DNA of 64,000 bases from Candidatus Latescibacterota bacterium (GCA_963707635.1 OY970173.1:3040001-3104000); one strand, 5' to 3'; shown: positions 8,576 to 42,049, counted from the stretch's first letter. The notes: a model not told the origin generated them from the letters alone. Numbers and translations are program-made.

Positions 8576-10373
8576 ATGAACCCGCCATTTCACGACACCA
8601 TTCCCCGCCAGTTCCTGGCCTGCGTCCAGGGCTTCAACAAGCCGGACGCGTTCCGCCTCAAGCGGGACGGGCGCTACGTCGACGTGGCGCACGCGTGGAT
8701 GCTGGAACAGGTGCACGCCGTCGCGTGCGCGATCGGCGCGCTCGGCCTCGCCCGCGGGGACCGGGTCGCACTCCTGTCCGAGAATCGCATCGAGTGGGCG
8801 GTGGCCGACCTCGCCCTGCTCTCGGCGGGCTTCGTCAATGTTCCGGTCTACGCGACGCTCCCGCCGTCGCAGGTCGAGTACATCCTTCGGGATTCCGGCG
8901 CGCGAGCGCTCTTCGTGTCCTCGCGCGCCCAGCTCGCCAAGATCGGCGAGATCCGCGCGCGACTCCCCCGCCTGGAGCACGTGGTCGCATTCGACGCCGA
9001 CGCCGCCGGCGACGGCGTGATCGCGTTCGGCACCATGGTCGAAAGCGGGCGCGGGCTGGCAGCGCAATCCGACTACGCAGCCATGGTGGGAGAGATCCGC
9101 GCCGGCGACTGGGCGAGCGTCATCTACACCTCGGGCACCACCGGCGAGCCCAAGGGCGCGATTCTGACCCACGCCAACTTCATGGCCAACGTTCGGCAGT
9201 GCCTGGAGGTGTTCGAAATCGGCACGGCCGACACGTGCCTTTCGTTCCTGCCGTTGAGCCACGTCTTCGAGCGCACGGCGGGCTTCTACGTGATGATGAC
9301 CGCCGGCGTGACCATCGCGTATGCAGAGTCGATCGAGGCGGTGCCGCAAAACCTCGCCGAGGTGCGTCCCACGGTCGTGTGCTCGGTGCCGCGGGTCTAT
9401 GAAAAAATGTACGCGCGCATTCTCGACACGGTGGAACGCGGGCCGGCTCTCAAGAAGCGGTTGTTCCACTGGGCCGTGCACGCGGGACGGCAGTGGGTGG
9501 GCGAACACCTGCGCGGCCGCGTCGGCCCGGTCACCGCGGCACGCCGGCGCGTCGCCAACGCGCTGGTGCTCAAGAAGCTGCAGGCACGCGTCGGCGGCCG
9601 CCTGCGCTTCTTTGTCTCCGGGAGCGCCCCGCTCGCGCGCGACATCATCGAGTTCTTCTATGCGGCCGGCATCCCCATTCTCGAGGGCTACGGCCTCACC
9701 GAAACCTCGCCCGTGCTGACCGTGAATCACTTCGGCGCGTTCAAGTTCGGGACGGTGGGCCGGCCGCTCCCCGACGTGGAGATCCGGATCGCCCCCGACG
9801 GCGAGATCCTCGCCCGCGGCCCCAACGTCATGCAGGGATATCTCAACAAGCCCGAGCAGACGGCGGAAGCAATCGTCGACGGATGGTTTCACACCGGCGA
9901 CATCGGACACCTAGACGCCGACGGTTTCCTGGTCATCACGGACCGCAAGAAGGACCTGATCGCCACCGCGGGCGGCAAGAAGGTGGCGCCCGCAGCCGAT
10001 CGAAGGGAAGCTCAAGTCCAATCCATTGGTGACGGAAGCGATCCTGGTCGGCAATCGGCGGCCGTTTATCGCGCTGCTCCTGATCCCGAACTTCGACCGC
10101 CTCGACGCGTGGGCGCAGGCCGCGGGACTGGCAACCAGCGACCGCCCCGCGCTCCTGACCGCCCCCGCCGTGCGCGACCTCTACCAGCGCGTGGTCGACG
10201 GCGTGAATCAGGAGCTGGCGCAGTTCGAGCGCATCAAGTCGTTCGCGCTGCTCGGAAACGAGCTCTCCATCCACGACGGCGACCTCACGCCGACGCTAAA
10301 AGTGAGAAGGAAGATCGTGGAGGAGAAGTTCAAGGACGCGATCGACGCGATGTATCGCGCCCCCGCGCCGTAG
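8576..10373 (+). CDS. fadD: Long-chain fatty-acid--CoA ligase (AMP-binding), interrupted by a +1 frameshift near 9990
   Basis: YTSGTTGEPKG, EGYGLTE and FHTGD motifs; removing one C at 9989-9991 restores KKVAPQPIEGKL and joins the 10026-10373 frame. Confidence 0.88.
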
Positions 10374-10386
10374 CACCGGCGCGCCG

Positions 10387-12007
10387 CTAGAAGCGCCAGC
10401 TGAGGCTGGTGTAGACCTGGTCGTAGCCCTCGTTGCGCTCCCCGGAAATATTCCCGTACATTCCCTGCCCGAGGTCGACGTCCACGTCGGCCCCGAACCA
10501 GGACGTGCGGCTTGTCCGACGCCGCCGACAGCTTCGACTCCTCGTGTCGCGTCCCGCCGAACAGGTCGAACATCCAGCGCGCCCCGAGCGCGAATCCGCC
10601 CGAAACCGAATGCATCCAGCCCAGCGTGCTCTGGTTGTCGTAGCGAGTCGACCGGGCCCGCAGCTGCACATGCGCCGGGGTCAAATGGATCGCCGAGGCC
10701 GTCAGGGTGTAGGAGGTGGCGTCGCCGGCGGAGCCGCCGCTGCTCGATCGCGCCGTCGCTCCCAGCCGATAGCGCTGCGCGAAGCCCACTCCGACGCCTC
10801 CCCAGACCCCCTGCCGGTAGGAATCGTCGAACTCGGTCTCCGGGCTCACGTAGTCACGATACAGGCGCGCGTCGCGGCGGTGGTCGTAGCCACCGTCGAG
10901 GTCGACGCCGTGCGCCAGCCGATAGCGCGCCGAGAGAAACGCGTTGGTCAGCGACGCGGCGGACTCGCCTTCGTTTCGCTTCCACCCGCGGTTGATGTCG
11001 ACTTCCTGCTGGAACATCACCGAGAGCCGGGGTGTTGCCACCCGGCTCAAGAACGCCACGTACTCGCGGTTGATCTTGCCCTGTTCGTACGAGCCGATCG
11101 CGGCCGTCACCAACTCCCAGCGGGTGTGTGCCTGGGGCGCCGACCACCACCTCACGAACGCGCCGTACTCGGTGATGTCGGTCGAGAAACTGTAGTCGAG
11201 TGGTGCGGGCTGCGTGCCGCCGAAGACCCCGACGCCGAAACGACGCGCGGTTGCTTCGAACTGGCCGCCGTCGAAGGTGCTGATGCTCGCGAGCGCGGAC
11301 GAGAACTGTCGCCCGAGCGTCATGCGATAGCGGTCGCGCGGCGAGCGCGCGGTCGCATTCAGCCGATAGACGCGCGCCTCGCCGCTGTCGACCTCGCGCC
11401 CGTCGCTCACCGTCTGCAAAGTCCGGCGCGCGCGCACGTCGACCTGGAGGTCGAGCGCAGACCCTCCGACCCGCGTGCCGTCGAGGCGCACGTCGAGCGA
11501 CGGCTGCGTGACGTCGCCGCCGAAGCCGCTGCGGTCCATGACCCCGAGGTAGCGCACCCCGATTCGCCCCCGCAACCCCATGCGCCGCGGCCACGACTCC
11601 GTCGCCTCGGGCGGGGGCGCTTCGGCGGGCATCGTGGACATCACCGCCGCGCGAGCGGTGTCCGCGGCCGCCGCGGAGCGTGGCGCCGCGGTGAATCGAA
11701 CCGTGTCTCCCACCACGCACGCCGCGGTCGAGGTTTCGATCGCGCACGCCGCCCGCCGCGTGGAGACGTCCGACACGCGCAGCGTCGCGATGACCTGACC
11801 CCCGCGCACCACCTCGATGAGCGCTCCCACGTCGAGGCCGTCCTCGCGGCCGGCGTCGATGTAGATGGTCGAACTGGTGAGATAGGTGACGCGGTAGGCG
11901 CGCGCGGCGGGCGGCGCGGCGGACGCCGGGGCAGCGATCATCGCCGCCACGATCCCGGCCCACGCCAGGGCCGTAAGCATCTTCATGTGCCGGCGCGCCA
12001 TTGTCAT
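10387..12007 (-). CDS. Outer-membrane beta-barrel protein of multiheme operon, +1 frameshift near 10512
   Basis: Signal peptide, small N-terminal beta domain, alternating beta-strand pattern; removing one base restores the C-terminal SLSWRF beta-signal. Confidence 0.78.
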
Positions 12008-12009
12008 CG

Positions 12010-13311
12010 TCAATTGCCCCGGGGATGACAGTTGTAACAAGCCGACGACAGGTACGCGTAGCCGTTTTCGTTCCGATGGTGGCCGTCGGTCTCGGCCTGG
12101 TCGTCGTGCGGGTGGCACCCGAAGCACGAGAAGTCGGCGTAGCTCGCCGCGTTGGTGTGACAGGTGCTGCACGCGTTCCAGTTGCTGTGCCTCCCGCTCG
12201 CGATCGGGAAGAACGTCGAGTGGTCGAAGGTGGCGCCGCTCCACCGGGTCGTGTTGTGACACGCAAGGCAATCGGTGGTGAAGTTCGCCGCCGCGTGGTT
12301 CGGGTCGCTCGTCCCGTCGTAGTCGTTCTGGTGGCACGACACACACGCCCCCGAGAGTCCGGTGTAGGTGCCGCCGACGTGGCAGTCGGCGCACGGGAGC
12401 GGGACGTGGGCGCCGGTGAGGGCGAACCCCGTCGTCGCGTGATCGAAATGCGCGTCTCCCCACCGCGAGGTGTTGTGACACTGCTCACAGGTCGTCGGGA
12501 AGCCGGAGGCCGCATGGGTCGGGTCGCTAGTCCCGTCGTAGTCGCTCTGGTGGCACGACACGCACGCGCTCGAGAGCCCGGTGTAGGTGCCGCCGACGTG
12601 GCAGTCGGCGCACGGCAGCGTCGCGTGCGCTCCCGTCAGCGGGAACGCGGTGAGCGCGTGGTCGAAATGGGCGTGCGACCACGCCAGCTGGTCGTGGCAC
12701 AGCTGGCAGTCCTGGCTGAATCCGCCCGCCTCGTGGTCGGGCTGGACCGTCGCCTGGTAGTCGTCCATGTGGCACGACACGCACTCGGACGCCGTGTTGA
12801 CGTAGCTCAAGTCGCCCGGCGACGTGAGCCGGTGGCACATTTCGCAGTCCAGCGTCGTGTGCGCGCCCGCCAGTGGGAATCGGGTCAGGCGATGCAGCCG
12901 GATCTGATCGTTCCGGTCGACGAAACTGCGCGTGCCGTGGCAGCGCGAACAATCCGTGCCCAGCTCGCCGTTGTGAACGTCGGCGTGGCAGTCCACGCAC
13001 GCCGTCGAGACCCCGCCGAAGTCGAGACTCTTGTGACACTGCATGCAATCCACCGACGCGTGCGCCCCACCCAGCGGGAGGAACTTGTCGTGGTCGAACT
13101 TCTTGCTGATCCGGGCCGGCTTCCAGCCCGACGCCCGGTGGCAGAGCGAGCAATCCTCGCGGTAGTCGCCGTGGGGGTTGGCCACCTTCGGCGCCTGGTC
13201 GGCCGCGCGCGCCGCCGCCGGCCCCATCACCACCTGCCCGAGCAGGCTGGGCAGCAGCGCCGCCACGGTCATCGCGATACCGAGGGATATCAGGTCTCTT
13301 CGAGGTTGCAT
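12010..13311 (-). CDS. Exported multiheme cytochrome c, 16 CxxCH
   Basis: 16 CxxCH motifs counted; signal peptide; FDH..FPL.GAH repeats. Confidence 0.93.
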   Translation of the reverse strand: MQPRRDLISLGIAMTVAALLPSLLGQVVMGPAAARAADQAPKVANPHGDYREDCSLCHRASGWKPARISKKFDHDKFLPLGGAHASVDCMQCHKSLDFGGVSTACVDCHADVHNGELGTDCSRCHGTRSFVDRNDQIRLHRLTRFPLAGAHTTLDCEMCHRLTSPGDLSYVNTASECVSCHMDDYQATVQPDHEAGGFSQDCQLCHDQLAWSHAHFDHALTAFPLTGAHATLPCADCHVGGTYTGLSSACVSCHQSDYDGTSDPTHAASGFPTTCEQCHNTSRWGDAHFDHATTGFALTGAHVPLPCADCHVGGTYTGLSGACVSCHQNDYDGTSDPNHAAANFTTDCLACHNTTRWSGATFDHSTFFPIASGRHSNWNACSTCHTNAASYADFSCFGCHPHDDQAETDGHHRNENGYAYLSSACYNCHPRGN

Positions 13312-13357
13312 GGTCGGTCACCTCTCCGGCGCGACGGACTTCCGCCCGTCGCGTCCA

Positions 13358-15133
13358 CTAATTCCTATTCTCCAGCATGCTTCCGTCCGCGTGGCAGCTC
13401 TCGCAGCGCGCCGAGATCGGCCGGTAGAGCGCCATGCGCTTCCCGCCTGCCGCCGTCACGATCGGATGACACTTCACGCACGGAACTCGAACGTGCTTGC
13501 CGTCCAGCTGGAAGCTCTTCACGCGCGCGTGATCGAAACGGCTCGCGGGAACGAACGCATCCATCCCGTGGCAGCTCTCGCACGCACCCTTGTCCTTGCG
13601 CCCGTCGAACTGGATTCCGTGCGGGCTCTCGTGGCAGCCCCGGCACGACCGGTCGTCGATGCGCATGAGCAACTTCACCGACGCCGCGCCTTTCGACGCG
13701 GACGCGCGCGCCGGTTCCGCCATGTCCGGGTGGCACGCGAAGCACGGCACCGCGCGGTGCGCCCCCTCCAGCGGGAAGCGGGTCCCGGCGTGCATGGCCG
13801 CGTCCACGAGCGACGGCCGGAACGCGTCCATCGAGTGACAGGCGCGGCAGTCGTCCTTGCGCGCCCGCTCCCCACCGGGCGCGAAGCGCCCCTCGTGCGG
13901 GTCGCGGTGGCACTCGACGCAGCGCCCGCTCGTGGGGTGCAGCCAGACCCCAGCGGTGCCAAGCGCCGCCGCGACCTGCGCCGGTGTCCCCGCGGGCTTG
14001 CGCCCGTGACAGTCCCGGCACGCGACCCGGGCGTGCGCTCCGTCCAGCGGGTATTTCGTCGCCGCGTGTTGCGCGACCGTGAACGTGGCGGGCTTGAACG
14101 CGTCCACGCGGTGACACGCGGCGCAGTCAGGCGCCTTGCCGGCGACCACCGTCTGCCCGGCGTGCGCGTCCTGGTGGCATCCCGCGCACGTGGTAAACGG
14201 CGGTTTCTTGCCCCATGCGGTCTTCTCGTCGTGGCAGGCCGCGCACTTCACCGTCGCGTGCGCCCCGCGCAGCGGATAGCGCGTGCGGTCGTGGTCGAAG
14301 CGTTCGCCCGCGATCAGCTTGAACCCTCCGGTGACGTGACAGCTGCTGCACGTGACGCCGAACGAGCCCCGGTGGGGATCCGCATGACAGACTCCGCACT
14401 CGTCGTGCGGCAGCGGCTTGTAGAGCGGGATCACGCGTCCCTTCTCGTCCCTGGCGAGCTGGAGGCGCGCCGCCTCGTGGCAGGCCGCGCACGCCACCGT
14501 CGCGTGCTTTCCGGTCAGCGCGAACGCCGTCCTGGCATGGTCGAACCCGCGCGCGGGTTTCCACCCCTGCTCGTCGTGGCAGCGGGTGCAATCGCTTCCC
14601 AGCGAACCGCGGTGGACGTCCTCGTGACACCCGCGGCAGTCCGTGCCCAGGCCCACCCAGGGGATTTCCCGATTCTTATTCTTGACCAGTGACTGCATCT
14701 CTTTGCTCACATGCACCGACGCATGACATTTCCGGCATTCGATGGCGGCGTGTTTGCCGGCAAGCGGCCAGCCCGCGCGCGCGTGATCGAATTTCTCGGG
14801 CGACTTGTCCGGCCAGGCCACCATCGCGAAATCCCGGCCCCCGTGGTCGGGATGGCAGCGCGCGCAATCCTTTCTTCCCTCGCGCCCGTGAAAACCCTTC
14901 TGCTTCGACACCAGCGAGGCGATCTCCTCATGGCACGCCAGGCATTTCCGGTCCATCTCGCCCGCGCCCTTGCCGTGGCACTTGACGCACCCTAGATTTC
15001 CGTCGAGCGCGGCGTGCGCCTTCGCCAGCGGACCCGGCGACACCTGCGCGCGCGCGTTCGTCATGCCGCCGGCCGCTAGCGCGATCGTGATCGTCACCGC
15101 GATCGCCCGCACGCGCGCCGGCGCGCTAGCCAA
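13358..15133 (-). CDS. Exported multiheme cytochrome c, 20 CxxCH
   Basis: 20 CxxCH motifs counted; signal peptide ending ARA-Q; SPGPLAKAH N-terminus; FDH..PL.G.H repeats. Confidence 0.93.
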   Translation of the reverse strand: MASAPARVRAIAVTITIALAAGGMTNARAQVSPGPLAKAHAALDGNLGCVKCHGKGAGEMDRKCLACHEEIASLVSKQKGFHGREGRKDCARCHPDHGGRDFAMVAWPDKSPEKFDHARAGWPLAGKHAAIECRKCHASVHVSKEMQSLVKNKNREIPWVGLGTDCRGCHEDVHRGSLGSDCTRCHDEQGWKPARGFDHARTAFALTGKHATVACAACHEAARLQLARDEKGRVIPLYKPLPHDECGVCHADPHRGSFGVTCSSCHVTGGFKLIAGERFDHDRTRYPLRGAHATVKCAACHDEKTAWGKKPPFTTCAGCHQDAHAGQTVVAGKAPDCAACHRVDAFKPATFTVAQHAATKYPLDGAHARVACRDCHGRKPAGTPAQVAAALGTAGVWLHPTSGRCVECHRDPHEGRFAPGGERARKDDCRACHSMDAFRPSLVDAAMHAGTRFPLEGAHRAVPCFACHPDMAEPARASASKGAASVKLLMRIDDRSCRGCHESPHGIQFDGRKDKGACESCHGMDAFVPASRFDHARVKSFQLDGKHVRVPCVKCHPIVTAAGGKRMALYRPISARCESCHADGSMLENRN

Positions 15134-16553
15134 CGGCCGATGCCTCCTGCGGGAGCGGCACGTCCTTCTTCACAATCCGGATGCCGATTCCCTCCAGGAA
15201 CTTGAACGGCGGATCGCCGCCGATGCGCACCACCACCACGTCGTTGGGGAGCACCTCCTCCCGCCCCTCCACGTCCAGCACGACGCTCCCCTCTCGAATC
15301 GACCGCACCTGGCTGTTCAGCGCCACGCGCAGCGTCCCGCACCTAACCGCCTCGTTGAGATTCGTGCGGTTGCGGTCTTTCACGCGCCCGAACTCCGCGC
15401 CCCGATAGCTCAGCGTGACCGTGGTCCCACGCTGCCGCGCGAGGCCGACGGCCGATTCCACCGCGCTGTCACCGCCCCCCACCACCAAGAGACGCATGCC
15501 GGCGAACGATTCCATGTCCGCAACGTCGTAGATCACCTTGCCCAGCTCCTCGCCCTCCACGCCCAGGCGGCGCGGGCTTCCGCGCCGGCCCATGGCCAGC
15601 ACGACGCGCCGGCCGCGGAAGACGCCCTCCGAGGTCTCGACCAGCAGCAGCTGGCCGCGACGTTCGATGTTGGACACGCGGTGCTGGGTCTTCACCTCGA
15701 GCCCGGTCTTCGCGATGATTCGCTCCCACGCCTGCAGGAGATGTTCCTTCGACGAGTCCGACACCCAGAGGTTGCCGTACAGCGGAACCCGCACCGGTTC
15801 CGCGAGCAGGAACTTCGCGCGCGGGTACTTGCGGATGGTGTCTGCGAGAGAGCCCTGCTCGAGCACGAGATAGCGCAGCCCGCAGCGCAACGCCTCGAGG
15901 CCCGCGCTCAACCCGGCCGGGCCGCTGCCCACGATGATCACGTCGTACGCGTCCCGGTCGCCGTCGCCCCGCGGCTCGCCGGGGGGCAGGTCGTGCGCCA
16001 CGTGCTCGATCGCCACCTTGGCCTCGTTGATCGCGTTCTTGATGAGACCGCGTCCGCCGAGCTCGCCGACGATGTACACACCGCGCAGATTGCTCTCGAA
16101 GTCCGAGTCGAGGTCCGGCACTTCGACCCGGTGTACGGCGGAGCCGGTCGCGAGGACGATCCCGCCGACCGGGCACGCTTCGACGCACTTGCCGTGTCCG
16201 GTGCAGAGCGCCGTGTTGACGGTCGCGAGTTTTCCGACCATCTGGATGGCCCCGGTTTCGGGGCAGACTGGAACGCACGCTCCGCACCCGACGCACTGAT
16301 CCGCGCGCACCACCGCGTGCGGCTTGCCGCCGGCGCTGCCGCTGTCCGCGCCCTCGACCACGGTCGGGGCGCTCACGACTTCGTAGAGCTGCATCGGCAC
16401 GTCGCAGCGCGGGCAACGCGCCGCTCCCGGCGGCACGGCCGCATGGCAGCGCGGACAGGCAGTCGCCTTTTCGGTGGTGGTCTGGCTCATGTGACGATAG
16501 ACGAAATAGCCCGTCAGCACGATCAATCCAAGCGTGGTGAGCAGCATCGTCAT
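15126..16553 (-). CDS. Membrane-anchored ferredoxin-domain FAD/NAD(P)H oxidoreductase (TrxR/YpdA-like)
   Basis: N-terminal TM helix, CPRC x2 ribbon, CVGCGACVPVCP and CTGHGKCVEACP, IVGSGPAG (FAD), VVGGGDSA...SYR (NADPH-type). Confidence 0.88.
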   Translation of the reverse strand: MTMLLTTLGLIVLTGYFVYRHMSQTTTEKATACPRCHAAVPPGAARCPRCDVPMQLYEVVSAPTVVEGADSGSAGGKPHAVVRADQCVGCGACVPVCPETGAIQMVGKLATVNTALCTGHGKCVEACPVGGIVLATGSAVHRVEVPDLDSDFESNLRGVYIVGELGGRGLIKNAINEAKVAIEHVAHDLPPGEPRGDGDRDAYDVIIVGSGPAGLSAGLEALRCGLRYLVLEQGSLADTIRKYPRAKFLLAEPVRVPLYGNLWVSDSSKEHLLQAWERIIAKTGLEVKTQHRVSNIERRGQLLLVETSEGVFRGRRVVLAMGRRGSPRRLGVEGEELGKVIYDVADMESFAGMRLLVVGGGDSAVESAVGLARQRGTTVTLSYRGAEFGRVKDRNRTNLNEAVRCGTLRVALNSQVRSIREGSVVLDVEGREEVLPNDVVVVRIGGDPPFKFLEGIGIRIVKKDVPLPQEASAVG

Positions 16554-16563
16554 GACAGCTCCA

Positions 16564-17475
16564 CTAGAACCACGTCGCGCCGACGGTGACGACGACCACG
16601 ACGTGGATCGTGACCGCGATGAAGGCGGTGATCGCCACCGGCCGGTGGGCAGCGTGCCAGTGACGGAAGATCGAGTGGGTGGCGTTCAGGAGGCGCGTCT
16701 GCTGGTTCAGCGCCATTTCCCGGCGCGCGAGCGCCATGATCGCCCGCACGTGCTTTGCGTCGACGGTCCGCCCCGCGGCGAGCCGCGCGCGCAGCCGGCG
16801 TGCCGCCCGCGCACGCGCGATGTCGTCGCGAACCATCAACACGAACGCGCGCCCGATTCCCACGTTCGGAGGAACGGATTCCACGTTGAGAATCTCCTGC
16901 ACGTCGAGAACCGACAACCCGGACGCGTCCGCGATCTCGCCCAGCAGCGCGCGCTGGTGCGCGGCCACTTCGCCCAGCCCGAGCTCGACGCCGCCGCGGC
17001 TGCGCGGAATACGCACGTAGAGGTATCGTCCGACCACGCCGCTCGCGCACACGATGAGCATCGCGAAGTAGCCGAGACCGATCACGCCGCCGAAACGGAA
17101 GCTCGCGTGGATGGCGCCGACGAGTGGAAGCACCAGCCCCACACCGATGTGCACGTTGAGCCACCGCGGCACCGGGCCGACCCACTCGGGGGCGCGCCGG
17201 AGCTTCTTGCGCAGCGGAAAGAGCCACATGAAGAGAAACCCGAGAAACGTTACGACCCCGGCGGCCTGGCCGATGTATCCGGAGGGCCTAAACCAGGGAT
17301 GCAGGGCGTGGCGAAGCTGCTCCCCGCGCGGGAGGACATAGTAGGGTGCTCCGATGGCGGCAACGATCAGCAGGAGGACAACGGGAACAAGCACCATCCG
17401 GCCCGGGCTCGCGGTGCGCGAACTCGCAGCGGGTTTGGCGGTTACGGGCTTGGGCTTGGTCGCTGTCTGGGGCAC
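16564..17475 (-). CDS. Inner-membrane protein with four candidate heme-b histidines (ferric-reductase-like TM)
   Basis: About 6 hydrophobic segments; WLNVH, IHASF, WHAAH and IHVV. Confidence 0.72.
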   Translation of the reverse strand: MPQTATKPKPVTAKPAASSRTASPGRMVLVPVVLLLIVAAIGAPYYVLPRGEQLRHALHPWFRPSGYIGQAAGVVTFLGFLFMWLFPLRKKLRRAPEWVGPVPRWLNVHIGVGLVLPLVGAIHASFRFGGVIGLGYFAMLIVCASGVVGRYLYVRIPRSRGGVELGLGEVAAHQRALLGEIADASGLSVLDVQEILNVESVPPNVGIGRAFVLMVRDDIARARAARRLRARLAAGRTVDAKHVRAIMALARREMALNQQTRLLNATHSIFRHWHAAHRPVAITAFIAVTIHVVVVVTVGATWF

Positions 17476-17549
17476 GCTCGAACCAACCTGGGTGCGGCCG
17501 GGTTAGAAGAATCCCCAGCAACTACTGGGACAAACCACACCAGGGGAAG

Positions 17550-17564
17550 GCAACGCAAGTGCCA
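17550..17564 (-). promoter_or_regulatory. sigma54 (-24/-12) promoter of multiheme operon
   Basis: TGGCAC-TTGCG-TTGC on minus strand, exact consensus spacing, 75 bp upstream of the first gene. Confidence 0.78.
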
Positions 17565-17706
17565 TGCCGCTAGCGGGTTAGACGCGGCACGCCTCAATAT
17601 TCCACAGCTGGCCTTCGAGCGCAACAAGAGTCTATCCGCAGGTGCCGGCCGGATTGCGTTGTGCGGGCGAAAACTGTGGCAGAATGGCTCGGCTGAGCCC
17701 GCGCGC

Positions 17707-28287: not shown

Positions 28288-31200
28288 TCACTTCACCAGC
28301 ACGATTTTTTGCCGCTGCACGACTCCGGCCGCTTCGAACTGAACGTAGTATACGCCGCTGGCGACACGCGCGCCCCGGTCGTCGCGGCCGTCCCACGGCA
28401 CGGCGTGGGTTCCGGTGGCTCGATTCTCATCCACCAGCGCGCGCACCCGCGCGCCGCGCACATCGTACACGAACAGACGGACACGGCCCGCCTCGGGCAG
28501 ATCGAAGCCCAGCGTCGTCGACTGCGTGAACGGGCTCGGAAACGCGGGCCGGAGCGCGGCGGCCGCCGGGGGAGTGTCGTTCACGCCCGTGGGTCCTCCG
28601 GAGATACCGAGTGTGAGCGTGTAATTGCCCGTCTGATCCTGGCCGGCGTCCTCGACCACGATCGTATAGAACCCGTTGGCGCTGAGTAGCTGGTTGACGT
28701 TGTCGCTCGACGTCGAGGCGATCCACGGCCCCCCGCTGGGCGAGTACAGCCAGACCTGCGTGTCCATCGCTCCGGACGTAACGGTGGCAGTGATGTTGGC
28801 GGTCTGGCCGCTCTGCCCGAAAAACGTGTAGCCGTCCAGGTCGGCGACGGCGATGGCGGAGCCGTTGACGGGCGTATTCAGGCTGATGGGCCCGCCGTCG
28901 GTTTCGGCGCCGGTGGTGTAGGGACCGAACGACGAGTTCAAGAACGAAACGCTGTAGTCGCCCGCGGTGTCGTTCCCGTTGTCTTCGATCGCGATCGTCC
29001 ATGTGCCCGATGACGTCACCTGGTAGTCGAGCCGGTCCCCGGTCGCGTAGGTCGCAAGCGCGCCGCCCAGCGGCGGATACAGATAGATGGTCGTGTTGAA
29101 CCCGACGCCCCCGGTCGCAATGGCGCTGACGATCACCCGGCTGCCGTTGGTCGCCTGGAACTGGTAGGCATCGATGTCGGCCACGCCGCTCATCGTCCCC
29201 GTGCGGATGTCGTTCGATGCGATCGCGCCACCGTTGGCGTCGCTTCCGTCGGTGAGGGGGCCGCTGGTGGCGTTCACGAACGAAAGCGTGTACGTCCCCG
29301 TGTTGTCGTTGCCCGAGTCCTCGATCACGATCGTGTAGACTCCTGTCGTCAGGAGTTTCACGTCGAACCGGTTCGTTGAGCTGTACGCCTCGTACGCGCC
29401 CCCGCCTTGCGGGTACACCGACATGAGGGTATTGTGCGCGCCCGCGCCCGTCTCCACGCCCACCACGATCACCCGCTGGTTCGCCGATGCGTTGAACGTG
29501 TACGCGTCGAAGTCCACCCCCTGCTGGAATTGACCCGTCTTGATCTGATTCGAGAGAATCGACCCACCGTCCATGTCTCCCACATTGGTGCGCGGCCCCG
29601 ACGTCACATTCAACAAGGACATCGAGTAGTTCCCCGGGGTGTCGGTCGCGTTGTCCTCGATCAGGATCGACCACGTCCCCGTCGCCGTCAGCTGCACGTC
29701 CAGCCGGTCCCCCGTCGCGTACGTCAGGTACGCTCCCCCGCTGGGCGGATACAGAAAGATCGTCGTGTTGAACCCCGCGCCCCCCGTCGCCACCGCGTCG
29801 ATCAACACCCGGTTCCCGTTCGTCCCCGCAAACGTGAACACATCCATGTCCCCCACCCCGCTCATCGTCCCCGTCTTCACATCCGCCGAGACCATCGCTC
29901 CCCCGTCCAGGTCCCCACCGTCCGTGTACGGACCCGTCGTCACATCCACCATCGAGAGCGTGTACGTCCCCGCGTTGTCGTTGCCCACGTCCTCCACCAC
30001 GATCGTATACGTCCCCGTCTGCAACAGCTGCACGTCGAAATTGTTCGTCGAGCTGTACGCCTCGTACACACCCCCGCCCGGCGGATACACCGACATGAGG
30101 GTGTTGTGTCCCCCACCTCCCGTCTCCACCCCCGCAAACACCAGCCGGTGCCCCGCCGTCCCCGCGAACGTGAACGCGTCGAAGTCCACCCCCTGCTGGA
30201 ACTGACCCGTCACGATCTGGTTCGACACGATCACAGCCCCGTCCGTGTCACTCCCGTTCTCGTGCGGCCCCGACGTCACATTCAACAAGGACATCGAGTA
30301 GTCCCCCGGGGTGTCGGTCGCGTTGTCCTCGATCAGGATCGACCACGTCCCCGTCGCCGTCAGCTGCACGTCCAGCCGGTCCCCCGTCGCGTACGTCAGG
30401 TACGCTCCCCCGCTGGGCGGGTACAGAAAGATCGTCGTGTTGAACCCCGCGCCCCCCGTCGCCACCGCATCGATCAACACCCGGTTCCCGTTCGTCCCCG
30501 CAAACGTGAACACATCCATGTCCCCCACCCCGCTCATCGTCCCCGTCTTCACATCCGCCGAGACCATCGCTCCCCCGTCCAGGTCCCCACCGTCCGTGTA
30601 CGGACCCGTCGTCACATCCACCATCGAGAGCGTGTACGTCCCCGCGTTGTCGTTGCTCACGTCCTCCACCACAATCGTATACGTCCCCGTCTGCAACAGC
30701 TGCACGTCGAAATTGTTCGTCGAGCTGTACGCCTCGTACGCACCCCCGCCCGGCGGATACACCGACATGAGCGTGTTGTGTCCCCCGCCTCCCGTCTCCA
30801 CCCCCGCAAACACCAGCCGGTGACCCGCCGTCCCCGCGAACGTGAACGCGTCGAAGTCCACTCCCTGCTGGAACTGCCCCGCCACGATCTGGTTCGATAT
30901 GACCAACGCCCCGTCCGTGTCACTCCCGTTCTCGTGCGGCCCCGAGGTCACGTTCAAAAGCGACATCGAGTAGTCCCCGGGCGTATCGGTCGCGTTGTCC
31001 TCGATCAGGATCGACCACGTCCCCGTCGCCGTCAGCTGCACGTCCAACCGGTCCCCCGTCGCGTACGTCAGGTACGCACCCCCGCTGGGCGGGTACAAAA
31101 AGATCGTCGTGTTGAACCCCGCGCCCCCCGTCGCCACCGCATCGATCAACACCCGGTTCCCGTTCGTCCCCGCAAACGTGAACACGTCCATGTCCCCCAC

Positions 31201-32994
31201 CCCGCTCATCGTCCCCGTCTTCACGTCCGCCGAGGTCATCGCCCCGCCGTCCAGGTCTCCACCGTCCGTGTACGGGCCCGTCGTCACGTCCATCATCGAC
31301 AAGGTGTACGTCCCCGCGTTGTCGTTGCTCACGTCCTCCACCACAATCGTATACATCCCCGTCTGCGCCAGCTGCACATCGAACTGGTTCGTCGTGTTGT
31401 ACGACTCGTACACTCCCCCGCCCGGCGGATACACCGACATGAGCGTATTGTGGACTCCGCCTCCCGTCTCCACCCCCGCAAACACCAGCCGGTGACCCGC
31501 CGTCCCCGCGAACGTGAACGCATCGAAGTCCACCCCCTGCTGGAACTGCCCCGTCACGATCTGGTTCGACACGATCACAGCCCCGTCCGTGTCACTCCCG
31601 TTCTCGTGCGGCCCCGAGGTCACATTCAAGAGCGACATCGAGTAGTCCCCCGGCGTGTCGTTCGCGTTGTCCTCGATCAGGATCGTCCACGTCCCCGTCG
31701 CCGTCAGCTGCACGTCCAACCGGTCCCCCGTCGCGTACGTCAGGTACGCACCCCCGCTGGGCGGGTACAGAAAGATCGTCGTGTTGAACCCCGCTCCCCC
31801 CGTCGCCACCGCGTCGATCAACACCCGGTTCCCGTTCGTCCCCGCAAACGTGAACACATCCATGTCCCCCACCCCGCTCATCGTCCCCGTCTTCACATCC
31901 GCCGACACGATCGCTCCCCCATCCAGGTCCCCACCGTCCGTGTACGGTCCCGTCGTCACATCCACCATCGAGAGCGTGTATGTCCCCGCGTTGTCGTTGC
32001 CCACGTCCTCGATCACCAGCGTGTACGTCCCCGTCTGCGCCAGCTGCACGTCGAACTGGTTCGCCGAGTTGTACGACTCGTACACACCCCCGCCCGGCGG
32101 ATACACCGACATGAGGGTGTTGTGTCCCCCACCTCCCGTTTCCACCCCCGCAAACACCAGCCGGTGCCCCGCCGTCCCCGCGAACGTGAACGCGTCGAAG
32201 TCCACCCCCTGCTGGAACTGACCCGTCACGATCTGGTTCGACACGATCACAGCCCCGTCCGTGTCGCTCCCGTTCTCGTGCGGCCCCGAGGTCACGTTCA
32301 AAAGCGACATCGAGTAGTCCCCCGGCGTGTCGTTCGCGTTGTCCTCGATCACGATCGTCCACGTCCCCGTCGCCGTCAGCTGCACGTCCAGCCGGTCCCC
32401 CGTCGTGTACGTCAGGTACGCCCCCCCACTGGGTGGATACAGAAAGACCGTCGTGTTGAACCCCGCTCCCCCCGTCGCCACCGCGTCGATCAGCACCCGG
32501 TTCCCGTTCGTCCCCGCAAACGTGAACGCATCGATGTCCGCGGCTCCGCTCATCGTCCCCGTCTTCACATCCGCAGAGGTGATGGCGCCGCCGTCCAGAT
32601 CGCCGGCACTTGTCAGTGGCCCCGCCGTCACATTGAGAAACCCGAGCGCATAGTTCCCCGCGTCATTGAGCCCAACATCCTGGATTTCGATCGTGTAGCT
32701 GCCCGTCGCCACAAGCTGCCAGTCCATGAGGTCGGCGGATGTCGTCGCTTCGGTCCCGCCACCCGGGGCTTTCAAAACGATGTTCGTGTTCATCGCCCCG
32801 CTCGTGGTCACAGCGGAAATAATGATGCGCTGACCCGCCGTCCCCGCGAACGTCCACTGCTCGAGGTAGGTCGGGTTGGCAACGCTCCCAGCGACGGTCG
32901 AACCCGAGGTAATGGGGCCGCCGGCGCGGGCGCGTGGCGAGGCGAGAACGGTAGAGAGAACGAGGACGGGCAAGAGAATGGCTCGGGGGCTCAT
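28288..32994 (-). CDS. Large secreted protein: 13 PPC-like beta-sandwich repeats plus C-terminal FlgD-Ig domain
   Basis: Signal peptide; about 112-aa repeats (D.FTF.G..G...TGTYTI.ED); C-terminal PSPF...YDVRG...WDGRDDRG..VASGVY. Confidence 0.85.
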   Translation of the reverse strand: MSPRAILLPVLVLSTVLASPRARAGGPITSGSTVAGSVANPTYLEQWTFAGTAGQRIIISAVTTSGAMNTNIVLKAPGGGTEATTSADLMDWQLVATGSYTIEIQDVGLNDAGNYALGFLNVTAGPLTSAGDLDGGAITSADVKTGTMSGAADIDAFTFAGTNGNRVLIDAVATGGAGFNTTVFLYPPSGGAYLTYTTGDRLDVQLTATGTWTIVIEDNANDTPGDYSMSLLNVTSGPHENGSDTDGAVIVSNQIVTGQFQQGVDFDAFTFAGTAGHRLVFAGVETGGGGHNTLMSVYPPGGGVYESYNSANQFDVQLAQTGTYTLVIEDVGNDNAGTYTLSMVDVTTGPYTDGGDLDGGAIVSADVKTGTMSGVGDMDVFTFAGTNGNRVLIDAVATGGAGFNTTIFLYPPSGGAYLTYATGDRLDVQLTATGTWTILIEDNANDTPGDYSMSLLNVTSGPHENGSDTDGAVIVSNQIVTGQFQQGVDFDAFTFAGTAGHRLVFAGVETGGGVHNTLMSVYPPGGGVYESYNTTNQFDVQLAQTGMYTIVVEDVSNDNAGTYTLSMMDVTTGPYTDGGDLDGGAMTSADVKTGTMSGVGDMDVFTFAGTNGNRVLIDAVATGGAGFNTTIFLYPPSGGAYLTYATGDRLDVQLTATGTWSILIEDNATDTPGDYSMSLLNVTSGPHENGSDTDGALVISNQIVAGQFQQGVDFDAFTFAGTAGHRLVFAGVETGGGGHNTLMSVYPPGGGAYEAYSSTNNFDVQLLQTGTYTIVVEDVSNDNAGTYTLSMVDVTTGPYTDGGDLDGGAMVSADVKTGTMSGVGDMDVFTFAGTNGNRVLIDAVATGGAGFNTTIFLYPPSGGAYLTYATGDRLDVQLTATGTWSILIEDNATDTPGDYSMSLLNVTSGPHENGSDTDGAVIVSNQIVTGQFQQGVDFDAFTFAGTAGHRLVFAGVETGGGGHNTLMSVYPPGGGVYEAYSSTNNFDVQLLQTGTYTIVVEDVGNDNAGTYTLSMVDVTTGPYTDGGDLDGGAMVSADVKTGTMSGVGDMDVFTFAGTNGNRVLIDAVATGGAGFNTTIFLYPPSGGAYLTYATGDRLDVQLTATGTWSILIEDNATDTPGNYSMSLLNVTSGPRTNVGDMDGGSILSNQIKTGQFQQGVDFDAYTFNASANQRVIVVGVETGAGAHNTLMSVYPQGGGAYEAYSSTNRFDVKLLTTGVYTIVIEDSGNDNTGTYTLSFVNATSGPLTDGSDANGGAIASNDIRTGTMSGVADIDAYQFQATNGSRVIVSAIATGGVGFNTTIYLYPPLGGALATYATGDRLDYQVTSSGTWTIAIEDNGNDTAGDYSVSFLNSSFGPYTTGAETDGGPISLNTPVNGSAIAVADLDGYTFFGQSGQTANITATVTSGAMDTQVWLYSPSGGPWIASTSSDNVNQLLSANGFYTIVVEDAGQDQTGNYTLTLGISGGPTGVNDTPPAAAALRPAFPSPFTQSTTLGFDLPEAGRVRLFVYDVRGARVRALVDENRATGTHAVPWDGRDDRGARVASGVYYVQFEAAGVVQRQKIVLVK
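29500..32600. repeat. 672-bp intragenic tandem repeat (about 4.5 units)
   Basis: Near-identical blocks recur at 29639, 30311, about 30983, 31655 and 32327. Confidence 0.9.
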
Positions 32995-33625: not shown

Positions 33626-34242
33626 TCGCTCTCCCTTACACAGAGGCAGTAAACGAACTCCTGTTCCGTCCCCCAGGGGGTCCGGTGCCGCTCTTTGAGT
33701 TGCCCCTCGAGGCGGAATGCGTCGCCGAAGGCGGCGTGGAGTTCGTCGGCACTGTAACGCACCACCGGAAGACCGCTGCACTTCTCGGGCCCACCGGGCC
33801 CGAATGTGGCCAGCACCACGTAACCCCCCTTCCTGACCGCGCAGCAAACGCGCTCGAGATAGGCCTTGCGATCGGCTTCGGAGGTCAGGAAGTGAAAAAC
33901 CGCGCGGTCGTGCCAGAGGTCGAATGAGTCGCTCGGAAAGTCGAGGGTGGTGACATCGTCGACGACCCAGGTCACCTGGGCGGCGCGTTCACCCAGGCGC
34001 TTCTTCGCCGCGTCGATCGGCGCCTGCGCGATGTCAACGACGGTTACGTGACGAAAGCCGCGAACGACGAGGTCGTCGACCAGCGTCGAGGCGCCGCCAC
34101 CGATGTCGACGATGCGTGCCTCGGGGCCGACGCCGGTGAGGAGAATGAGATCCAGCGAGCGTTTGAGGTGAGGCTGGTACCAGCTGACATCCGTCTCACG
34201 CTTGGTCTGGTAAACGTGTTCCCAGTGGTTGCGTTTGGACAT
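33613..34242 (-). CDS. Class I SAM-dependent methyltransferase
   Basis: HWEHVY..K...VSW, DIGGGAS, WHDRAVFHFL and CSGLPV. Confidence 0.92.
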   Translation of the reverse strand: MSKRNHWEHVYQTKRETDVSWYQPHLKRSLDLILLTGVGPEARIVDIGGGASTLVDDLVVRGFRHVTVVDIAQAPIDAAKKRLGERAAQVTWVVDDVTTLDFPSDSFDLWHDRAVFHFLTSEADRKAYLERVCCAVRKGGYVVLATFGPGGPEKCSGLPVVRYSADELHAAFGDAFRLEGQLKERHRTPWGTEQEFVYCLCVRESECGL

Positions 34243-34308
34243 GGGTGGGCCCGACCTCTCATGGTTCGAAGAAATCATATCATTGATTGTCGCGGCACGG
34301 GACCGGTC

Positions 34309-34337
34309 TTGCAGTATTATATACAATATTGTATAAT
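34309..34337 (+). promoter_or_regulatory. sigma70 promoter overlapped by a 16-bp palindromic operator
   Basis: TTGCAG-N17-TATAAT; perfect palindrome TATACAATATTGTATA at 34320-34335. Confidence 0.8.
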
Positions 34338-34343
34338 GCAACC

Positions 34344-34385
34344 ATGGCCGACAAGCCGCTGGTTTGGGTCGGCTCGAAGGAGTAA
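34344..34385 (+). pseudogene. 13-aa remnant of a HigB/RelE (Gp49-like) toxin
   Basis: MADKPLVWVGSKE* resembles the KPL.W.GS N-terminus of this toxin family; lies between promoter and antitoxin. Confidence 0.7.
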
Positions 34386-34388
34386 GTC

Positions 34389-34685
34389 ATGGCCAAGGTA
34401 CGCCGCTCATCGGGAAACGTTTTTCGAGACCTTGGGTTCGACCGTGAAGAAGCGGACAACCTCAAGATTCGCGCCGACCTCATGATCGCGGCAACGAGAC
34501 TCATCGAGACCCGTGGGCTGACTCAAGCCCAGGCTGCAAAACTGTTCGGTGTCACGCAGCCTCGTATCAGCAACCTCACCAACGGCAAGATCGACCGCTT
34601 CAGCATCGATGGGCTCGTGGAGATGCTGGGTAGGGCCGGCATCAGAGTCTCGATCGTGTTGAGTCGTAAACGCAAAGCAGCCTAG
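34389..34685 (+). CDS. HigA-like XRE HTH antitoxin
   Basis: SSGNVFRDLGF, LTQAQAAKLFGVTQPRISNL and FSIDGL. Confidence 0.88.
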   Translation: MAKVRRSSGNVFRDLGFDREEADNLKIRADLMIAATRLIETRGLTQAQAAKLFGVTQPRISNLTNGKIDRFSIDGLVEMLGRAGIRVSIVLSRKRKAA

Positions 34686-34692
34686 GCGTCGA

Positions 34693-35883
34693 TCATCTCG
34701 TCAAGTCTCCCGGCCTGTTCCGCGTCGAAGCAACATCCGCCGATCGTGGCTCCAGGACGACATCGTAACTCGGTCTCCGCGAGCCGTCGGAGAACTCCAC
34801 ACCATCCCGGCTCATCCACATGCGTCGGCCTTCGTGTTCTGTCAACGTGTATCCGCAGCAGAGTCCCGCGATACCGCAGTCCGTCAGCGTGCGAAGCTCT
34901 CCACCGTCGTAAGCTCCATCGGAATCGAGATCGTTCCAGAGCTTGAGGCCGCGCAGTTCATGGCCGCGAAGCCACCCGTCGCCGTTGTCGTCGAGGGCAG
35001 CTAGGGCCTCGTAGCCATTTTTCCAGAATACCCAGAAGGTCACGTTGCCAAACAGGTCGCGGCCGGACCTGATGTCACCCAGGTCGCCATAGTCATGCAC
35101 GAGCCAGGCTGCCGCCGGGTCGATCCACGTCCAGCGCTGGTCTCTGCCTGAGCCGTCGACATCGAACGGCACGTCGAGATCATCACGCAGGATGTCGGCA
35201 ATTTCCCGGCCATCGCCCAGCGGGATGGCGATCGGCGTAACCCATGTCAGCCAGCTTTCCAACTCTTTGAGCTGCGCGCGACGCGTCGCAACCTCGTTCG
35301 AGTCTGAAACAGGATCCAGGAGATTGATCAAGTAGTGAAGTGCTTCAGCGAAGATGGCCTTCCTACCTGGGTCTTCGGTTTTCTTGAACTCCTTGTCAAT
35401 GAGATCGCGGTAGATCTCCATTGCTTCGCGCTTCTTCCCCGCCTGCTCAAGACACCAGCCGTAGCCGAGCGAGATATCGACTCTCTCCGGCGCCAACGTG
35501 TGGGCGGTCTCGTACCACTTGATGGCTTCCTCGAGGTGCTCCCTGGCAGTTGTCACCTTCTCCTTGCCTTCGGGAGTGACGACGCGCGAGTGCACCACCG
35601 GAGGCTCTTCGGTGAAGTAGTGCTCTTGCTCTTCATTGTTGACGAAGACTTCAACGCTATCGATTCCCTGCGCATAGGCCATCCCGTGCAAGCGGCCAAG
35701 CCTCCACGCAAGGTCGGGATCCCTGGGCTTCGCCTCAACCTGCCGTTCGAGGTTGGCGATCATGCGGGCAATCGGAACCTTCCTGGTTTCGAGCGTGAAG
35801 TACATCGCGGTCGACATGACCGGTATCAGCCCGAGGAGGGCAGCAAAGGTGTAAACAACCCGCACGACCCGGGGCATTCCCAT
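34693..35883 (-). CDS. Exported TPR protein with C-terminal Ca-binding DxDGxG-type domain
   Basis: Signal-like N-terminus, TPR helices, FDVDGSG, SGRDLFG, ALDDNGDG and DLDSDG; lower GC than flanks; start uncertain. Confidence 0.7.
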   Translation of the reverse strand: MGMPRVVRVVYTFAALLGLIPVMSTAMYFTLETRKVPIARMIANLERQVEAKPRDPDLAWRLGRLHGMAYAQGIDSVEVFVNNEEQEHYFTEEPPVVHSRVVTPEGKEKVTTAREHLEEAIKWYETAHTLAPERVDISLGYGWCLEQAGKKREAMEIYRDLIDKEFKKTEDPGRKAIFAEALHYLINLLDPVSDSNEVATRRAQLKELESWLTWVTPIAIPLGDGREIADILRDDLDVPFDVDGSGRDQRWTWIDPAAAWLVHDYGDLGDIRSGRDLFGNVTFWVFWKNGYEALAALDDNGDGWLRGHELRGLKLWNDLDSDGAYDGGELRTLTDCGIAGLCCGYTLTEHEGRRMWMSRDGVEFSDGSRRPSYDVVLEPRSADVASTRNRPGDLTR

Positions 35884-35902
35884 GCGCACATACACGACCG
35901 GA

Positions 35903-42024: not shown

Positions 42025-42049
42025 AGTGCCGCTCTTGAGACCCGACTCC

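Follow-up and report, generated by a model that had tools for sequence, protein, structure and literature searches.

We analyzed a cluster of five genes on the minus strand of a stretch of DNA of 64,000 nucleotides from Candidatus Latescibacterota bacterium (GCA_963707635.1 OY970173.1:3040001-3104000), the whole of which is called the window here. The window belongs to a single-contig genome of 3.2 Mb that is 96% complete, and the nearest named relatives of its proteins are those of Candidatus Krumholzibacteria. The cluster (10387-17475) consists of five densely packed open reading frames (ORFs) in the order inner-membrane protein (IMP), iron-sulfur (FeS) flavoprotein, two multiheme cytochromes c and outer-membrane β-barrel, with distances from the first to the last gene of 10 nt, an 8-nt overlap, 46 nt and 2 nt. 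Together these genes suggest a conduit of the PCC3 type in which the IMP is genetically tied to the flavoprotein and which would transfer electrons from cytoplasmic NAD(P)H out of the cell, a reading that in our judgement has about an even chance of being right. An earlier note on this DNA had described five tightly coupled minus-strand genes with 36 CxxCH motifs, and all five ORFs are present, with 20 + 16 = 36 motifs. It had also extended the cluster to 17564, which is 89 nt beyond the start codon of the IMP, and that boundary had to be dropped; the open frame of the IMP is at most 312 amino acids (aa). The features are as follows:

16564..17475, minus strand: IMP, 303 aa, five transmembrane (TM) helices; candidate di-heme b relay of the PCC3-IMP type
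15126..16553, minus strand: TM-anchored FeS flavoprotein, 475 aa; TM helix, Cys4 ribbon, two FeS motifs, TrxR/YpdA-fold domain
13358..15133, minus strand: first multiheme cytochrome c, 591 aa, 20 CxxCH, signal peptide; predicted periplasmic wire
12010..13311, minus strand: second multiheme cytochrome c, 433 aa, 16 CxxCH, signal peptide; predicted outer or extracellular wire
10387..12007, minus strand: outer-membrane β-barrel gene, about 539 aa; frame broken near 10511 in the assembly
17513..17530, minus strand: terminator-like hairpin between a DinB-family gene and the IMP gene; possible 5' boundary, weak

The inner-membrane protein carries two conserved histidine pairs

The IMP of the window matches no Pfam or NCBIfam family at E <= 0.01. 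Its hydrophobic segments lie at residues 27-45, 68-86, 106-124, 126-144 and 280-298, and an AF2 (AlphaFold2) model (pLDDT 82.3) has helices at 24-46, 67-91, 102-123, 130-153 and 240-298. Lysine and arginine residues cluster at the N-terminal end and in the loop of 122 residues (154-275) that connects TM4 with TM5; this loop is conserved and predicted to be cytoplasmic. When 21 IMP sequences of at least 48% identity were compared, W105, H109, H123, S145, G146, G149, W273, H277 and H291 were invariant. The protein had previously been described as a four-His membrane protein, and the two pairs behind that description hold (H109/H123 on TM3 and H277/H291 on TM5, with the i/i+14 spacing of di-heme b bundles), but H59 and H274 are also invariant in the 21 sequences, which brings the number of invariant His to six. 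Each pair places one His toward either membrane face, and by the positive-inside rule H109/H277 would be near the cytoplasmic face and H123/H291 near the periplasmic face. This is the layout to be expected of two stacked bis-His b hemes. Matches to known families among the 21 sequences were all sub-threshold: Ferric_reduct in 10 (best E 0.14), DUF4405 in 9 and Ni_hydr_CYTB in 4 (best E 0.016).

Database searches also returned longer ORFs with an IMP-like part. In P0145 (863 aa) and P0135 (439 aa) this part runs into Fer4/Pyr_redox_3 or zinc-ribbon/Fer4 segments like those of the flavoprotein, and in P0235 (742 aa) and P0185 (513 aa) it has a long N-terminal extension of no clear family. All four may be either fusions or gene calls with a frameshift, and P0145 and P0135 were for this reason not used as Rosetta-stone fusions of IMP and flavoprotein.

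The flavoprotein is predicted to be a membrane-anchored, NAD(P)H-type enzyme with its own FeS centres

The product of the second gene has a single N-terminal TM segment (residues 1-19), followed by a Cys4 ribbon of invariant C33, C36, C47 and C50, a ferredoxin-like domain at 80-130 (Pfam Fer4_21, E 7.8e-12) and a flavin domain at 206-467 (Pfam Pyr_redox_3, E 6.5e-43). A CPRCH sequence in this protein falls within the cytoplasmic Cys4 ribbon and is no heme site. The first FeS motif is a classical CxxCxxCxxxCP, and the second reads C117xxH120xxC123xxxC127P, with an invariant His at the usual Cys position; we predict that the second cluster is His-ligated or otherwise unusual. The motifs for the cofactors, GSGPAG at the FAD site and GGGDSA...YR at the NAD(P)H site, are invariant. 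The earlier description of a TM-anchored enzyme of TrxR/YpdA fold with GGGDSA...YR and two FeS motifs is thus borne out, although His120 had gone unnoticed.

The closest solved structure is Bdr/YpdA (7a7b, E 4.4e-29). With a profile of the flavoprotein family, 7a7b was matched at E 2.1e-42 and ferredoxin-NADP reductases (FNRs) at E 1e-16 to 1e-24, and the nearest solved relatives (Bdr/YpdA, TrxR and TrxR-type FNRs) are all NADPH enzymes. The Cys in the GGGPCG motif of YpdA/Bdr is catalytic. In the flavoprotein the position of this Cys is taken by the invariant Ala213, the score against the YpdA family TIGR04018 is below the cut-off (162.5 bits vs 339.9), and the family alignment contains no conserved redox Cys pair in the flavin domain; therefore, the electrons of the flavin most likely go to the FeS centres of the protein itself. 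The redox domains are predicted to be cytoplasmic because, both in homologs arranged as in the window and in those with the divergent gene layout described below, the TM helix is followed by basic residues and no Tat motif is found. Thus, the assignment of a cytoplasmic NAD(P)H-type flavoprotein made in the earlier note agrees with the predicted topology and the motifs, and a disulfide centre is absent.

An invariant GVYIVGELGGRGLIKNAINE-type segment is present at residues 158-177, ahead of the GxGxxG motif for FAD, and the Pfam match ends approximately 17 positions before the end of the model. The C-terminal strand that binds FAD seems to have been shifted to the N-terminal side, a possible circular permutation relative to TrxR-like enzymes. 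Prediction of a complex between IMP and flavoprotein with 2 hemes and 2 FeS clusters returned a score of 0.00 and a mark of 0.32, which gives no verdict and was not used.

The two cytochromes differ in the constancy of their heme number

The first cytochrome is built of c7/c3-type units (Cytochrome_C7 in 6 stretches, E 1.7e-29) and scores below the cut-off of the DmsE family (TIGR03508, 41.8 bits vs 192.2). Its signal peptide is followed by a conserved QVSPGPL, and all 72 homologs in which the N-terminus is covered have a mature N-terminus of the form Q[IVFL]SPGxL. The heme count is 20, 22 or 23 in 64 of 65 complete frames (20 in 13, 22 in 2 and 23 in 49 frames; the remaining frame has 62). 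The second cytochrome matches Cytochrom_CIII (E 7.1e-10), remains below the cut-off for domain II/IV of MtrC/MtrF (24.4 bits vs 30) and has a signal peptide without a lipobox Cys; its relatives span 9 to 70 CxxCH motifs. Sequence searches found no relative of known structure for either cytochrome at E <= 0.01.

At one Acidobacteriota-labelled locus (L067:8373-11498, plus strand), flavoprotein and first cytochrome share one frame of 1042 aa with 23 CxxCH, in which the signal peptide at the junction is reduced to a hydrophobic stretch of approximately 12 residues. This may be a real fusion or an artefact of deletion or assembly. Because the linking stretch is short and this is one case among 37 collinear loci, it was not used as Rosetta-stone evidence.

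The last gene encodes a predicted 22-strand barrel

We collected 45 intact homologs of the barrel (506-588 aa), all of which end in [WY]RF. An AlphaFold model of a 60%-identical homolog (from locus L006; pLDDT 82.3) consists of a small N-terminal β domain, a disordered linker and a barrel of 22 strands, without a plug domain. Foldseek found 322 matches of this model to outer-membrane barrels at E <= 0.001. The best matches in VIA were 22-strand barrels of the SusC/TonB type (Z 15-17; SusC-like 5t3r_D, Z 17.0), and MtrB (6r2q_B) was matched with Z 13.9 over 333 aligned residues (rmsd 5.3 Å). No Pfam family reaches its cut-off for the barrel homologs; MtrB_PioB (PF11854) gave 16.5 bits vs a cut-off of 23 in one of 4 homologs and no match in the other 3. 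The β-barrel proposed in the earlier note is therefore supported by the model of the homolog and by its structural matches, but the gene in the window is frameshifted near 10511.

The five genes are conserved together

When species-representative genomes were scanned with the IMP alignment, 80 loci were obtained, and co-occurrence was counted over the 46 of them with at least 8.5 kb of sequence downstream of the IMP homolog. Homologs of the first cytochrome were found in 46 of these flanked loci, of the second cytochrome and the barrel in 45 each, and of the flavoprotein in 44. All five genes are present in 43/46, so that the five families do co-occur, as the earlier note had proposed should be checked. 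One locus (L023) has no match to the second cytochrome or the barrel. The gene content, the motifs, the predicted folds and topology and this conservation are the observed part of our analysis.

The flavoprotein gene lies downstream of and collinear with the IMP gene in 37 loci, as in the window, and is divergently transcribed upstream of it in 38. Flavoproteins of the divergent layout lack the Cys4 ribbon and keep the TM anchor and the basic residues. In a quick tree of the IMP (77 rows, limited to those that have a flavoprotein match and cover enough of the IMP), the divergent layout formed two clades of Gemmatimonadota, and the collinear layout occurred in all named phyla. Since the flavoprotein is kept in both layouts, its pairing with the IMP has outlived at least one rearrangement.

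The phyla and other groups named in the titles of the locus records are Krumholzibacteriota, Gemmatimonadota, Acidobacteriota, Myxococcota, Binatia and Eisenbacteria. The IMP is present in 79 of 201 sampled genomes of the host phylum, where it is patchy by family (0/42 in one, 48/87 in another), and an IMP profile had 1676 matches at E <= 1e-10 among 1.84 billion cluster representatives (50%-identity clusters). The names among the IMP-related clusters were 'hypothetical protein' and one Calditrichota label, with no named proteobacterial PCC3; a second-tier IMP search returned only Acidobacteriota names, and the ESM Atlas gave clusters of Gemmatimonadota and Acidobacteriota.

A cultured member of the Bacteroidota, Emticicia oligotrophica DSM 17448, carries five homologs in the order of the window on its plasmid pEMTOL02 (IMP, E 7e-31; flavoprotein, 1e-89; cytochromes, 2e-90 and 7e-82; barrel, 1e-16). 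Among the annotations there are 'NAD(P)-binding domain-containing protein', 'cytochrome c3 family' (twice) and, for a product of 538 aa, hypothetical protein. This cassette (8869-20667 in L082) is preceded by a 1028-aa ccsA gene for cytochrome c biogenesis, and genes for a sigma-70 family factor, a Rieske protein and other barrels are nearby. No cytochrome maturation gene adjoins the cluster of the window.

The cluster resembles PCC3 and adds a flavoprotein

PCC3 is described in passages of He et al. 2017 (PMC5566968), on a purely bioinformatic definition, as a set of porin, extracellular cytochrome (median 34 hemes), periplasmic cytochrome (median 21 hemes) and conserved IMP. The IMP of PCC3 and PCC4 is reported there to have approximately 300 aa and five TM helices, with SGxxG on TM4 and Wx3Hx13H on TM3 and TM5. 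For PCC3 of Gallionellaceae, the corresponding passages of PMC10734462 and PMC11429942 give 21-27 hemes for the periplasmic and 10-35 for the extracellular cytochromes, and the latter lists Slit_1446-1449 of Sideroxydans lithotrophicus ES-1 as IMP, periplasmic cytochrome, extracellular cytochrome and porin.

The window cluster has the same order of IMP, long cytochrome, variable cytochrome and porin. Its IMP, with 303 aa and five TM helices, has the published size and helix number, and Wx3Hx13H on TM3 and TM5 and SGxxG on TM4 are all present and invariant in its family. The first cytochrome, predicted to be periplasmic from its signal peptide, has 20 hemes here and 20-23 in relatives vs 21-27 there; the second cytochrome is variable (16 here and 9-70 in relatives vs 10-35 there), its extracellular location being only predicted. 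A barrel gene is part of the cluster, with the window copy in frame only if one base fewer is read near 10511. By motifs, gene content and order the cluster thus appears to be of the PCC3 type, of which Slit_0867-0870 and Slit_1446-1449 are the type clusters.

It differs from PCC3 in the TM-anchored FeS flavoprotein, which is near-constant here (44/46 loci) and outside the four-gene definition, and in its hosts, which are Krumholzibacteriota, Gemmatimonadota and other non-proteobacterial phyla. He et al. (PMC5566968) mention an Fe-S gene upstream of the IMP in subgroup II of PCC4, and Supplementary Table 6 of that paper places an 'other redox protein' of 412-805 aa, to which no name is given, next to related HX13H IMPs in clusters that lack a porin. 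The cytoplasmic partner therefore seems to have been glimpsed in that work, not identified. Words for flavoprotein are absent from its supplements as searched (Table 4 as legend only), and 'flavoprotein' and 'NADPH' from the main texts of PMC10734462 and PMC11429942. The partner is undescribed in the literature searched, including PMC11475568, PMC10734462, PMC11429942 and the preprint 10.64898/2026.05.27.727921, and full-text literature searches returned no paper on a porin-cytochrome conduit linked to NAD(P)H. The clusters presented in that preprint, which deals with peat, carry cytochromes of 8-13 hemes, unlike the window cluster. A constant NAD(P)H-type flavoprotein partner would be new relative to the known, uncharacterised PCC3.

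Other known systems share parts of the arrangement

In NOX, FRE and STEAP proteins, NADPH reduces a flavin, and electrons pass from it through two stacked bis-His b hemes, whose ligands are His pairs of two TM helices, to an acceptor across the membrane. The earlier note had proposed a path like that of NOX or ferric reductases, an analogy that applies to function only. Full-length NOX/FRE proteins have six TM helices and a fused FNR-like FAD/NADPH domain. The IMP of the window has five helices and no significant match to Ferric_reduct (PF01794), its Z of 7.4 with STEAP1 lying within the noise of helical bundles; its dehydrogenase is a separate polypeptide of TrxR/YpdA fold with two FeS centres; and its output is a 36-heme chain with a barrel rather than O2 or Fe(III) at the membrane surface.

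In MtrCAB of Shewanella (6R2Q), which is paired with CymA, and in Mto/Pio, a periplasmic cytochrome, an outer cytochrome and a large barrel are likewise encoded together. In the window type, the first cytochrome lies below the cut-off of DmsE/MtrA (TIGR03508) and the barrel homologs below that of MtrB_PioB (PF11854), the heme numbers are much larger, and no NapC/CymA quinol dehydrogenase was found in the cluster. The barrel of MtrB has 26 strands, whereas the window-type model has 22. Comparison with known conduits, as called for in the earlier note, therefore places the core with PCC3 and outside the MtrAB families. The flavoprotein shares the two-Rossmann FAD/NADPH fold with YpdA/Bdr and TrxR-type FNRs (7a7b, 3ab1, 3lzw) and differs from them in the TM anchor, the Cys4 ribbon and the ferredoxin-like domain; its electrons are predicted to go to the FeS centres that it carries, and not to a disulfide or a free ferredoxin. 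Two functional analogues share no detected families with the cluster. The flavin-based extracellular electron transfer system of Listeria (Ndh2/EetAB/PplA) is a dedicated NADH-linked extracellular route that uses quinone and flavinylated proteins, and in Hmc/Tmc of Desulfovibrio a membrane cytochrome b connects cytoplasmic FeS proteins with a 16-heme cytochrome of the periplasm, with no part in the outer membrane.

Surroundings of the cluster and probable errors in the assembly

The cluster is flanked upstream by a DinB-family (DinB_2) gene and a glyoxalase gene and downstream by a convergent gene for an AMP-binding acyl-CoA synthetase. These flanks are unrelated to the five genes, which therefore form a self-contained unit. 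Terminator-like hairpins in the region number 2 vs 3.6 expected by chance, so that the site at 17513-17530 is at chance level.

As assembled, the barrel gene switches frame approximately 40 codons before its end through one extra base near 10511. Near-identical DNA occurs in habitats of the bog type. We compared contigs of public runs with the window over 9800-17600. The base at 10511 is absent from the sole covering contig of run X1 (1180 nt, 19 mismatches) and likewise from the sole covering contig of run X2, and dropping it opens a barrel frame of 539 codons plus stop. The synthetase gene (8576-10376, plus strand) is also split, by an extra base near 9988, with its C-terminal domain running on in a different frame (10026-10373). 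At this position a near-identical X1 contig and an X3 contig are each one base shorter, and without the base the synthetase frame is open over 598 codons. Two insertions of one base each, less than 600 nt apart in a genome assembled as one contig, have the look of consensus errors; the barrel frameshift is thus probably an assembly error, with a strain-specific mutation as the other possibility.

Elsewhere in the window, the GC skew is -0.27 at 30001-32000, and the G+C content is 0.58-0.59 at 34001-36000 and 42001-44000 vs approximately 0.66-0.69 in the remainder. The same genome has a second cytochrome-rich island at 2448391-2462594, approximately 0.58 Mb upstream of the window cluster, with open frames of 6, 10, 9, 13, 19 and 4 CxxCH motifs.

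A proposed path from NAD(P)H to the cell exterior

From these data we infer a cofactor loading, a set of contacts, a direction of flow and an acceptor. NAD(P)H would reduce the FAD of the TrxR-fold domain at the cytoplasmic face, and single electrons would pass through the two FeS centres, one of them predicted to be His-ligated, with the Cys4 ribbon adjoining the membrane in the collinear layout. From there they would reach the cytoplasmic-side heme b (H109/H277) and then the periplasmic-side heme b (H123/H291) of the IMP. The IMP would hand them to the 20-heme periplasmic cytochrome, whose QVSPGPL N-terminus may dock on it, and this to the 16-heme cytochrome, threaded through or presented by the 22-strand barrel. 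The final acceptor would be extracellular, possibly Fe(III)/Mn(IV) minerals or humic matter. The flavoprotein partner suggests that NAD(P)H, and not quinol, is the cytoplasmic electron source. Pfam and NCBIfam scans found no quinol dehydrogenase family (NapC/CymA or NrfD-type) in the cluster or its flanks, in line with what the earlier note had reported. In its fullest form the proposal is of a quinone-independent, NOX-like wire across the diderm envelope, running from NAD(P)H over FAD and two FeS centres, one of them His-ligated, to two b hemes and on to 36 c hemes and a barrel. It would be widespread in mostly aerobic phyla of soil, peat and sediment and would serve as a direct valve linking the pyridine nucleotides of the cytoplasm with minerals or organic matter outside the cell; this we put forward tentatively, as somewhat short of an even chance.

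Outward flow from NAD(P)H to Fe(III)/Mn(IV) oxides or humic quinones is downhill and aided by the membrane potential. It would be electrogenic and conserve no energy, and the cluster would therefore be a redox valve or accessory route rather than a main energy-conserving chain. The host genome encodes COX1 (heme-copper oxidase) and NuoD (complex I), and a redox-balancing role fits an organism that also has these enzymes.

Several points weigh against this reading. A direct route from NAD(P)H to the outside would spend membrane potential, and gene linkage gives no direction of electron flow. Heme b in the IMP is read from motifs only: Foldseek found no match of the IMP model in the PDB at E <= 0.001, and a wide VIA search returned generic helical bundles throughout (Z <= 9.2; designed di-heme bundle 7ah0, 8.8; cytochrome b561, 7.5; STEAP1, 7.4; CybB, 7.0), with all scores below the level that is meaningful for helical bundles. 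The barrel gene is out of frame as written in the assembly. A flavoprotein match is missing in 2 of the 46 flanked loci, L024, which has only 486 nt of upstream sequence, and L061, where none is found within 8.2 kb upstream or 9 kb downstream. Finally, passages of PMC10734462 and PMC11429942 call PCC3 functionally unverified, and proteobacterial PCC3 is described in the relevant part of PMC5566968 as four genes without a flavoprotein.

The main rival is a quinone-linked PCC3 in which the five-helix IMP is a quinol- or quinone-reactive cytochrome b and the flavoprotein an accessory. This is the function that He et al. (PMC5566968) suggested for the IMPs of PCC3 and PCC4, in passages that also liken them to the ferric-reductase domain. 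It agrees with their four-gene clusters, with L061, a conduit without a flavoprotein match in 17 kb, and with the weak matches to Ni_hydr_CYTB, a quinone-reactive cytochrome b, in 4 of the 21 IMP relatives (best E 0.016). The flavoprotein, however, is found in 44/46 flanked loci and has been retained despite a change in gene order, and its membrane anchor, present in both layouts, would not be expected of a soluble accessory. We regard the quinone-linked alternative as unlikely, though to be taken seriously. The same chain could also run inward, with the conduit oxidising external donors (Fe(II), reduced minerals or humics, or a partner cell) and the flavoprotein reducing NAD(P)+. TrxR-type FNRs, which are relatives of the flavin domain, work toward NADPH in some organisms. 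PCC3 is found in and discussed for Fe(II)-oxidising Gallionellaceae in passages of PMC5566968 and PMC10734462, the latter of which also calls multiheme conduits of the Mtr/Mto type reversible.

Set against this, inward flow from Fe(II) to NAD(P)+ is uphill in redox potential and works against the membrane potential; the potentials of Fe(II) or humic donors are much higher than that of the NAD(P)+/NAD(P)H couple. Moreover, RuBisCO was not found in the 96%-complete host genome, and with a heme-copper oxidase and complex I present the profile suggests a heterotroph with little need of such uptake, which we consider rather improbable. Still less probable, in our view, is a function that never leaves the cell, with the cytochromes as a periplasmic electron store or as a reductase of soluble substrates in the periplasm (metals, oxyanions or reactive oxygen species) and the barrel as porin or anchor. 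The second cytochrome has no lipoprotein signal, and the barrel model is no less similar to SusC/TonB-type substrate transporters (Z 15-17) than to MtrB (Z 13.9), both of which findings would suit such a function. But the barrel gene stands beside the cytochromes in 45/46 loci and is translationally coupled here across a 2-nt gap, the heme numbers (9-70 in the second cytochrome, 20-23 in the first) follow the pattern reported for extracellular vs periplasmic cytochromes of PCC3, and the 22-strand lumen, without a plug domain in the model, could house a cytochrome.

Implications

To our knowledge, the characterised outer-membrane cytochrome conduits (Mtr, Pcc/Ext and Mto/Pio) are all thought to draw on the quinone pool. 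If the outward path from NAD(P)H is correct, an NAD(P)H-wired conduit would be a different coupling of metabolism to minerals, humic matter and electrodes, and the five genes would make a self-contained cassette for bioelectrochemical engineering. The cultured carrier E. oligotrophica DSM 17448, with its plasmid pEMTOL02, puts the question within experimental reach. The same path would change the reading of extracellular electron transfer genes in metagenomes of soil and peat, where the IMP family is common, and the PCC3 IMP of iron oxidisers would be reinterpreted as a relay coupled to a flavoprotein instead of a cytochrome b that reacts with quinones.

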